Sequence record: PQ850609.1
Direction: 5' to 3' (one strand)
From: Escherichia phage Huey
DNA: 38,575 nt
A program made the translations under genes and the position numbers. This document shows positions 24,764 through 25,234 of this stretch, piece after piece. The notes below the pieces were generated by a model. That model was given only the letters and a program-made list of their open reading frames with translations, was not told where the DNA came from and did not search any database. Positions within the stretch are counted from its first letter, which is position 1. Each line of letters opens with the position of its first letter.

Positions 24764-25234
24764 CTAATAAAATACCCAATTTTCTGTTTCTTGGTTGTGC
24801 CCAAAGTTATATTCAATATCTGGTGTTGATGTATCAATATTCTTCATCCCATCAACAAGAGTTGATACAACAGCCAAATCTTGTTTGATTCTCATTAAAT
24901 GGTATTTCTTCCGGCGCAATAAACTCTCAATGGCAAGTTTCTTCGTTGGGAATGCAAAAGATCTTTCTGCATTTTTTGCTACTTTCTTAATTGCATATCT
25001 ATTTCTCCTTTGTTTCCATTCCTGTAACCACTGATTTGGTGCTGGTTTAAAATTAACAATCCAATGCGCAGGAACCAACCATGCATAATGCTCTGTCTGA
25101 TGAAAAGCTATATATTGAAGTGCGAATATTTTTATCCCATCTTCTTCAACTGTCGCCTGGAATCTCCAGAAAACAGGCATTCCATCATGTTCAGTTTCTG
25201 ATTCAGGAAAAGGTACGCTCCATGATTTTGTCAT
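24764..25234 (-). CDS. Hypothetical protein (156 aa), AT-rich, immediately downstream of N
   Basis: Starts 8 nt after N stop; lower GC than neighbours; central basic helix. Confidence 0.5.
   Translation of the reverse strand: MTKSWSVPFPESETEHDGMPVFWRFQATVEEDGIKIFALQYIAFHQTEHYAWLVPAHWIVNFKPAPNQWLQEWKQRRNRYAIKKVAKNAERSFAFPTKKLAIESLLRRKKYHLMRIKQDLAVVSTLVDGMKNIDTSTPDIEYNFGHNQETENWVFY

Follow-up and report, generated by a model that had tools for sequence, protein, structure and literature searches.

A 156-amino-acid (aa) open reading frame (ORF) directly downstream of the antiterminator gene N of Escherichia phage Huey (sequence record PQ850609.1; the whole 38,575-nt stretch analyzed is referred to here as the window) is a real coding gene under purifying selection, and its predicted product belongs, as judged by profile searches, to a phage-restricted protein family of uncharacterized function. 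The ORF is an accessory gene that rides a small mobile cassette in the slot separating N from the PreS element in the early-left (pL) operon of lambdoid phages. Tentatively, and with somewhat less than even confidence, we favor the explanation that it provides an early lytic-cycle, host-directed accessory function through a conserved basic strand-helix surface. The features of the region are listed in Table 1.

Table 1. Features in and around the N-to-PreS slot of the window
Feature	Position	Strand	Basis or remark
Gene for E/K/A-rich coiled-coil protein, ~323 aa	23652-24622	minus	between PreS and cIII
PreS/LPR1-type sRNA gene ending in tL2a	24633..24754	minus	identity with lambda ral-ea10 spacer
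Intrinsic terminator tL2a, stem and T-run	stem 24661..24640	minus	terminator scan
9-nt tail TACGAGTAA after ORF stop, right-hand cassette boundary	24755..24763	minus	alignments
156-aa ORF	24764..25234 (stop codon included)	minus	ATG start; PHROG 1636
Shine-Dalgarno sequence GAGGTGAG	25235..25250	minus	overlaps N stop TGA
Lambda-type antiterminator N, 110 aa	25243..25575	minus	Pfam N36 E = 1.6e-26; PHROG 271
Shared N 3′ end (VTCVGRQKMKLGSKPLI*)	25243-25296	minus	common to lambda-type N here and 933W/phi24B-type N
nutL boxB hairpin GCCCTGAAGAAGGGC	25727..25741	minus	sequence; hairpin also picked up by scan
boxA CGCTCTTAA	just upstream of boxB; boxA and boxB together about 25727-25760	minus	sequence
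AT-rich ORF directly downstream of cI	25919-26395	minus	lambda rexAB position; likely true start Met near 26323

A coding gene directly behind N

The window represents a P22-like (Lederbergvirus-type) lambdoid phage, and the flanks of the ORF are ~98% identical to those of Sf101, Sf6, HK633, and CUS-3. An earlier note on this DNA had described a 156-aa ORF starting 8 nt past the N stop, with a lower GC content than the flanking genes and with a product that combines an acidic and aromatic N-terminal half with a strongly basic stretch, and our analysis bore out this description. Specifically, the N TGA lies at 25243-25245 and the ORF ATG at 25232-25234, and the coding strand across the junction reads ...AAA CCA CTT ATT TGA GGTGAGAT ATG. 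An 8-nt spacer with the Shine-Dalgarno sequence placed over the upstream stop codon is a typical arrangement, which suggests that translation of the ORF may be coupled to that of N. The GC content of the ORF is 36.3% (GC3, 28.7%) versus 49.5% for N and 45.7% for the coiled-coil gene, with 47.7% for the window overall. The ORF is the most AT-rich stretch of the window; just 0.1% of all 471-nt segments taken along the 38.6 kb are equally rich in AT.

The encoded protein has a mass of 18.6 kDa and an overall pI of 9.07, and its charge is unevenly distributed: residues 1-60 have a pI of 5.05 and include 11 aromatics, residues 76-131 contain the basic stretch quoted in the earlier note (pI 11.1, 16 K+R), and the last 25 residues are again acidic (pI 4.05). 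No transmembrane segment was found (maximum KD19 = 0.56), and the product is a soluble, basic protein. The dN/dS ratio between the ORF and its copy in phage Dewey is 0.09, and comparisons with the Pectobacterium, Cronobacter, and Brenneria homologues gave pN values of 0.23-0.27 against pS values of 0.80-0.92. It is because of this low dN/dS, the excess of pS over pN, and the detection of the identical protein by proteomics in strain EDL933 (see below) that we regard the ORF as a real gene.

Transcription and induction together with N

The local gene order is pL, nutL, N, ORF, PreS/tL2a, coiled-coil gene, cIII. The boxA and boxB sequences of the window, which we take to be the equivalent of lambda nutL, mark the pL transcript, which extends across N and the ORF, and the terminator scan found no intrinsic terminator on the ORF strand between N and the PreS/tL2a hairpin. 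In our explanation, the ORF is transcribed with N from pL, its translation probably being coupled to that of N, and it is therefore silent in a lysogen and made early after infection or induction.

Published data on the identical gene of 933W, a phage other than Huey, bear directly on expression. The counterpart in EDL933 is EDL933_RS06705 (old tag EDL933_1363), located between the ea10-like gene and N of prophage BP-933W. After induction of EDL933 with ciprofloxacin, its RNA rose 66.7-fold at 2 h, the RNAs of N and of the ea10-like gene showed an identical 66.7-fold rise, and the protein itself was detected, with increases of 6.2-fold at 3 h and 8.4-fold at 12 h (PMC11125564, Table S1). Induction in step with N, together with detection of the protein, indicates that the lysogen keeps this gene repressed, that the gene comes on with the rest of the pL operon, and that its mRNA is translated.

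These properties weigh on a proposal of the earlier note, namely that the ORF is a candidate exclusion factor. In this reading, it would act in superinfection exclusion or abortive infection and so protect the lysogen in the manner of sieB, which occupies the same hotspot in lambda and P22, between N and ral/PreS; AT-rich prophage morons, moreover, are often expressed in lysogens. SieB exerts its effect from the prophage, and so its gene should be expressed in lysogens. In contrast, the literature data have the identical 933W gene induced 66.7-fold with N rather than constitutive, so that lysogen expression of the SieB type was not found. The product of the ORF lacks a transmembrane segment. 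The ORF is also co-directional with N and pL at a distance of 8 nt from N, whereas sieB lies on the strand opposite N in the lambda record used. The absence of any flagged promoter-like site on the ORF strand points the same way, although weakly, since the same scan also missed pL. No homology to SieB emerged from Pfam, NCBIfam, or the PHROG exclusion families, the matched PHROGs all being annotated as "unknown function", and relatives of the ORF occur in phages without lysogeny modules in the regions seen. A soluble product, coupling to N, induction with N, and relatives in apparently non-temperate phages thus disfavor the exclusion proposal, which we consider very improbable.

A discrete cassette in a variable slot

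Comparison of the window with other phages revealed that the ORF forms a discrete cassette, bounded by N and by the invariant PreS/tL2a element. On the N side, a three-way DNA alignment showed that identity between the window and phage Bas106 starts ~25 nt upstream of the ORF ATG, so about 25 nt 5′ of the ATG travel with the cassette. Identity between the window and phi24B starts ~55 nt upstream of the ATG, within the last ~17 codons of N, while the remainder of the phi24B/933W N is a different allele. As the last ~17 codons are common to both N types, the alignment places a mosaic or recombination joint inside the N 3′ end, and this joint, too, travels with the cassette. On the opposite side, the boundary is set by the 9-nt tail that follows the ORF stop and travels with the ORF: in a search of phage records, ORF-bearing phages matched from query position 1 and ORF-less phages from position 9-10. 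In Bas106, two genes are inserted exactly between the ORF stop and the PreS element. These insertable ORFs, of ~92 and ~70 aa, are found at positions 2656-3143 of the Bas106 locus and 2518-3005 of the Dewey locus; the 92-aa ORF resembles UDP0110 of the Silas accessory-gene library, and the insertion point coincides with the 9-nt tail of the cassette.

The element that closes the slot is strongly conserved. A stretch of 113 nt is 100% identical among the window, the ral-ea10 spacer of lambda, Sf101, phi24B, and 933W; a search recovered the element from 326 phage records, and Sf6 carries it under the annotation "bsq4 boundary sequence / terminator". Its fold has a z-score of −5.4 relative to shuffled controls, and Rfam returned no model matching the PreS region. 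The lambda copy of this element is identified in the literature as PreS (LPR1), an Hfq-dependent sRNA of ~88 nt with tL2a as its 3′ end; PreS appears from 10 min into lytic growth onward, is absent in lysogens, and upregulates the host gene dnaN (bioRxiv 10.1101/2024.10.31.621285; review PMC12197685). Whichever mRNA the slot encodes may be processed at its 3′ end to release PreS, and the element also serves as the right-hand limit of the variable slot. The coiled-coil gene on its far side, whose product is called "TolA" in some records, matches PHROG 1376 and 21365 (unknown function), replaces ea10/ssb of lambda and 933W, and is common to Sf101, 683R2, and some Stx1a phages.

The gene content between these anchors differs among phages, and five different contents were recorded across those compared. 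The ORF stands alone in the window, 683R2, 933W, phi24B, and BP-4795; it is followed by two more ORFs in Dewey and, in Bas106, is preceded by a 54-aa ORF and followed by two others. Sf101 carries an orf28-like ORF, ral, and two small ORFs in the slot and no 156-aa ORF, while lambda carries sieB, orf28, and ral. In agreement with this variability, the "Ral" region was the second listed, with the second-highest score, among the manually inspected accessory regions of Enterobacteriophages (bioRxiv 10.1101/2023.04.06.535777). The view that the ORF lies in the ral/sieB hotspot downstream of N, expressed in the earlier note, is therefore confirmed, as slot content varies between conserved anchors.

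The identical cassette is found behind a lambda-type N in the window, Dewey, and 683R2 and behind a 933W-type N in phi24B, 933W, and BP-4795, and the genes downstream of it vary as well (ea10/ssb-like, the coiled-coil gene, or extra ORFs). Despite flanks of ~98% identity, the ORF is missing from Sf101, Sf6, and HK633. Separate acquisition, which the earlier note had proposed from composition, thus gains support from sharp cassette boundaries across differing N alleles and downstream genes in addition to the low GC content. Because the cassette occurs with two N types and at least three downstream neighbors, is missing in the closest relatives, and is low in GC, the comparison leaves it well supported that the ORF was acquired separately and is dispensable. 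The copy in Wanchaivirus PDP110P2 (locus 2031-2497) aligns as two overlapping pieces in different frames and is apparently frameshifted, as would be consistent with a dispensable gene.

Relation to ral and other occupants of the slot

Among the known genes of the slot, ral of lambda invites the closest comparison. Both ral and the ORF lie between N and PreS/tL2a on the same strand, and both are early, non-essential, and variably present. In contrast, Ral has 66 aa and the ORF protein 156 aa, the two share no sequence similarity, and the predicted fold of the ORF protein (a long beta-hairpin sheet and a 33-residue helix) differs from that of Ral. A tblastn search with lambda Ral matched lambda and Sf101 and did not match the window or the nine other lambdoid loci that bear the ORF or a homologue. 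Nine loci had the ORF without ral and two had ral without the ORF, the 11 loci not being independent of each other.

The other proposal of the earlier note was an anti-restriction factor. In this reading, the ORF would be a functional analogue of Ral or Lar that alleviates type I or other restriction by a mechanism unlike that of Ral or of DNA mimics. The ORF holds the orf28/ral position of lambda, Sf101, Sf6, HK544, and CUS-3, it was never found together with ral in the loci examined, and early expression from pL would suit an anti-restriction gene. The protein, however, shows no similarity to Ral (PF11058) or Lar (PF14354). It also differs from the DNA mimics Ocr, ArdA, and Arn, which are strongly acidic: a protein with an overall pI of 9.07, a central 56 residues of pI 11.1, and no PDB fold match is not acidic and therefore no mimic of the Ocr/ArdA type. 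The spread of the family to Bacteroidota phages argues against a narrow, system-specific target, PADLOC and Pfam gave no match, and the ORF is not in the AG list of the accessory-gene screen. Taken with these objections, restriction alleviation seems improbable to us. The 933W prophage also has a frameshifted restriction-alleviation gene of the Lar family in its nin region (EDL933 BP-933W locus 19670-19907); a phage with the ORF may thus still carry a Ral-type function at another locus.

Another gene from the "Ral" accessory region, orf184, triggers gop-beta-cII (Silas et al., bioRxiv 10.1101/2023.04.06.535777). It shares with the ORF the region and the character of a small uncharacterized gene. 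We rejected the identification of the ORF with orf184, which is an unrelated acidic protein of 107 aa.

A phage-restricted family with a structurally unmatched fold

The ORF protein matched PHROG 1636 over its full length (residues 1-156 to profile positions 1-156, E = 2.7e-112). When 40 family members were scanned, all 40 matched PHROG 1636 and 34 matched PHROG 13631, and on this basis we assign the protein to a PHROG 1636/13631/25384 family. Close homologues (55-85% identity) reside in prophages of Cronobacter, Pectobacterium, Brenneria, Rosenbergiella, and Symbiopectobacterium, and an exhaustive profile search collected 87 representative clusters at E < 1e-3, mostly of 130-155 aa and aligning over approximately residues 19-140.

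Every family member with context was on a phage contig or prophage, in an early region or beside xis-int. Specifically, the order in Cronobacter is N, ORF homologue, cIII, while in Pectobacterium and Brenneria the homologue lies immediately upstream of xis-int. In Pseudomonas and Vibrio phages, it is found near genes for a RecE-like nuclease, a methyltransferase, AAA_24, or SSB and is often the last gene of an early gene string. Members of the family occur in phages of several phyla, both temperate and apparently non-temperate, and in the latter the regions seen contain no lysogeny genes.

AlphaFold2 with a 38-sequence alignment yielded a model with a mean pLDDT of 92.2 and a pTM of 0.79 (88.7-92.2 across five models). 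Predicted strands at residues 19-30, 33-46, and 50-55 form a three-stranded antiparallel sheet (residues 19-55), followed by short helices at 56-59 and 66-74, a strand at 83-86, a 33-residue helix at 98-130, and an ordered C-terminal tail. Fold searches were run with the first model (pLDDT 84.9), which has the same topology as the model with pLDDT 92. Foldseek against the PDB returned nothing at E ≤ 0.001 (best E = 0.89), and the fold matches in BFVD were exclusively uncharacterized proteins of Erwinia, Rhizobium, Delftia, Tenacibaculum, and Cellulophaga phages. A PDB sequence search with the single sequence and with the family profile gave nothing below E = 0.1. The fold, confidently predicted and phage-restricted as far as seen, is thus without a solved or characterized relative among the models and structures compared.

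Profile searches agreed with this picture. Matches of the ORF protein in Pfam, NCBIfam, and PADLOC were at chance level only: Pfam was empty even at E ≤ 1, and the sole match in PADLOC-DB was Cas1_II (E = 0.018, 12.4 bits). The 40 family members had no consistent Pfam match even at E ≤ 5. We found no profile or fold match to a helix-turn-helix, winged helix, AP2, or ribbon-helix-helix domain, and none of the searches revealed similarity of sequence or fold to a characterized anti-defense, regulatory, or nucleic-acid-binding protein. Repeats or low-complexity sequence account for the apparent domain fusions in two family members (P0059 and P0081), which we dismissed as spurious. We also considered whether the RSFAF-PTKKLAIESLLRRK strand-helix is AP2-like and discarded the idea, as no profile or fold result supports it.

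Residues T47, K87, R91, A94, A101, K109, and F155 are invariant, and across 80 distant members the conserved positions (query numbering) are Y/W23, G33, E46, T47, K87, R91/92, A94, A101, L105, K109, Q/H112, H/R115, and F155. The conserved K and R residues make nucleic-acid binding by the ORF protein plausible. In a distant subgroup, an H-C-C-H pattern at positions 45, 49, 53, and 115 is complete in 20 of the 106 sequences, with both cysteines present in 32, suggesting a structural zinc site that may link the sheet and the long helix. The corresponding residues in the E. coli subfamily are H45, H49, L53, H112, and R115. A zinc site of H45, C49, C53, and H115 was rejected for the ORF protein itself, its subfamily having no cysteine.

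The basic strand-helix element might equally serve the phage itself. Under this alternative, the protein would be an accessory factor or regulator of DNA or RNA transactions that uses this element to bind phage nucleic acid and modulates recombination, replication, excision, or early transcription. The basic segment (residues 76-131) with its invariant K87, R91, and K109 would suit such a role, as would relatives that adjoin genes for RecE-like, AAA_24, DUF3799, SSB, or methyltransferase proteins, the xis-int neighbors in Pectobacterium and Brenneria, and the ea10/ssb-like gene that comes next in Stx phages. Speaking against it, the ORF is dispensable and absent from close relatives of Huey, neither Pfam nor fold searches detected a known nucleic-acid-binding domain, and no neighbor is conserved across the family. 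We regard a phage-internal role, the main rival of the explanation that we favor, as possible, if on the unlikely side.

A proposed host-directed role

The explanation that we tentatively prefer has the ORF protein act on a host component in the lytic program, as do its pL neighbors Ral, Gam, Kil, and CIII. Ral counteracts type I restriction, Gam RecBCD, Kil division, and CIII FtsH. Through its conserved K/R-rich strand-helix surface, the protein would bind either a host protein or a ligand rich in phosphate (DNA, RNA, or a nucleotide), and this binding would neutralize a host barrier or recondition the cell. We favor a host-directed lytic role because the pL operon conditions the host, the slot is a hotspot, the ORF alternates with ral, and relatives occur in phages that appear to be non-temperate from the regions seen. 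That the protein acts on the host and not on the phage, which ligand it binds, and whether it serves counter-defense are matters that we infer. The argument from the hotspot works by analogy and is one of guilt by association, and the same slot also holds sieB and orf184. Distant neighbors are often recombination or replication genes, which a phage-internal role in DNA transactions would fit equally well. The replacement of E46, the most conserved residue in distant members, by Q in the subfamily of the ORF also counts against the favored explanation.

A more far-reaching version, which strikes us as doubtful, is that the ORF protein is the founding member of a new class of early phage counter-defense proteins, one without a structural match. 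In that case, an invariant T/K/R/K pocket together with aromatics would bind nucleic acid, a nucleotide signal, or a conserved host protein, and a widespread bacterial immune pathway would be disarmed. If true, such a class would explain the replacement of ral behind N, carriage by most 933W-like Stx phages and 11% of complete E. coli genomes, and the existence of relatives in phages of Proteobacteria and Bacteroidota. With a structural model, a defined family with invariant residues, and clear boundaries, the ORF is a tractable candidate for the discovery of anti-defense or host-takeover functions; should it instead prove to be a phage-internal factor, a family found in many groups of phages would still gain a function.

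Distribution among Stx phages and E. coli genomes

The ORF is not new as an object, having been in the databases since the deposit of 933W, and specialists would not be surprised to find an uncharacterized gene in a hotspot that is already known. Its annotation is "hypothetical" in all records. In the literature searched, we found no papers under its locus tags and accessions, including ST933Wp19, CAD88820, ADN68407, and phrog_1636, and the supplementary files of the screen of 200 accessory genes (bioRxiv 10.1101/2023.04.06.535777) do not contain its sequence.

The protein is identical or near-identical (≥99%) in 73 of the 82 matching phage records, which include 933W, phi24B, BP-4795, Stx2 phage 86, Min27, many Stx1a phages, and the BASEL phage Bas106. 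Proteins with 100% identity are 933W NP_049479, phi24B vb_24B_11c, BP-4795 ORF18, and EDL933_RS06705. Among 5,426 complete E. coli genomes, 598 (11%) contain the ORF, in up to four copies each. This places the ORF among the most widely carried uncharacterized early genes of Stx phages (933W, phi24B, BP-4795, and the Stx1a phages), and it may bear on what helps these phages spread between E. coli lineages. Wide carriage, expression at the protein level, a confident yet unmatched fold, and absence from a screen that covered its own hotspot make it noteworthy.

The window holds another AT-rich ORF of accessory character, directly downstream of cI (Table 1). Its product has a signal-peptide-like N-terminus, matches PHROG 2651 (unknown function), and is the equivalent of Sf101_0038; these sequence features make it a candidate for a lysogen-expressed, secreted or periplasmic exclusion or conversion protein.
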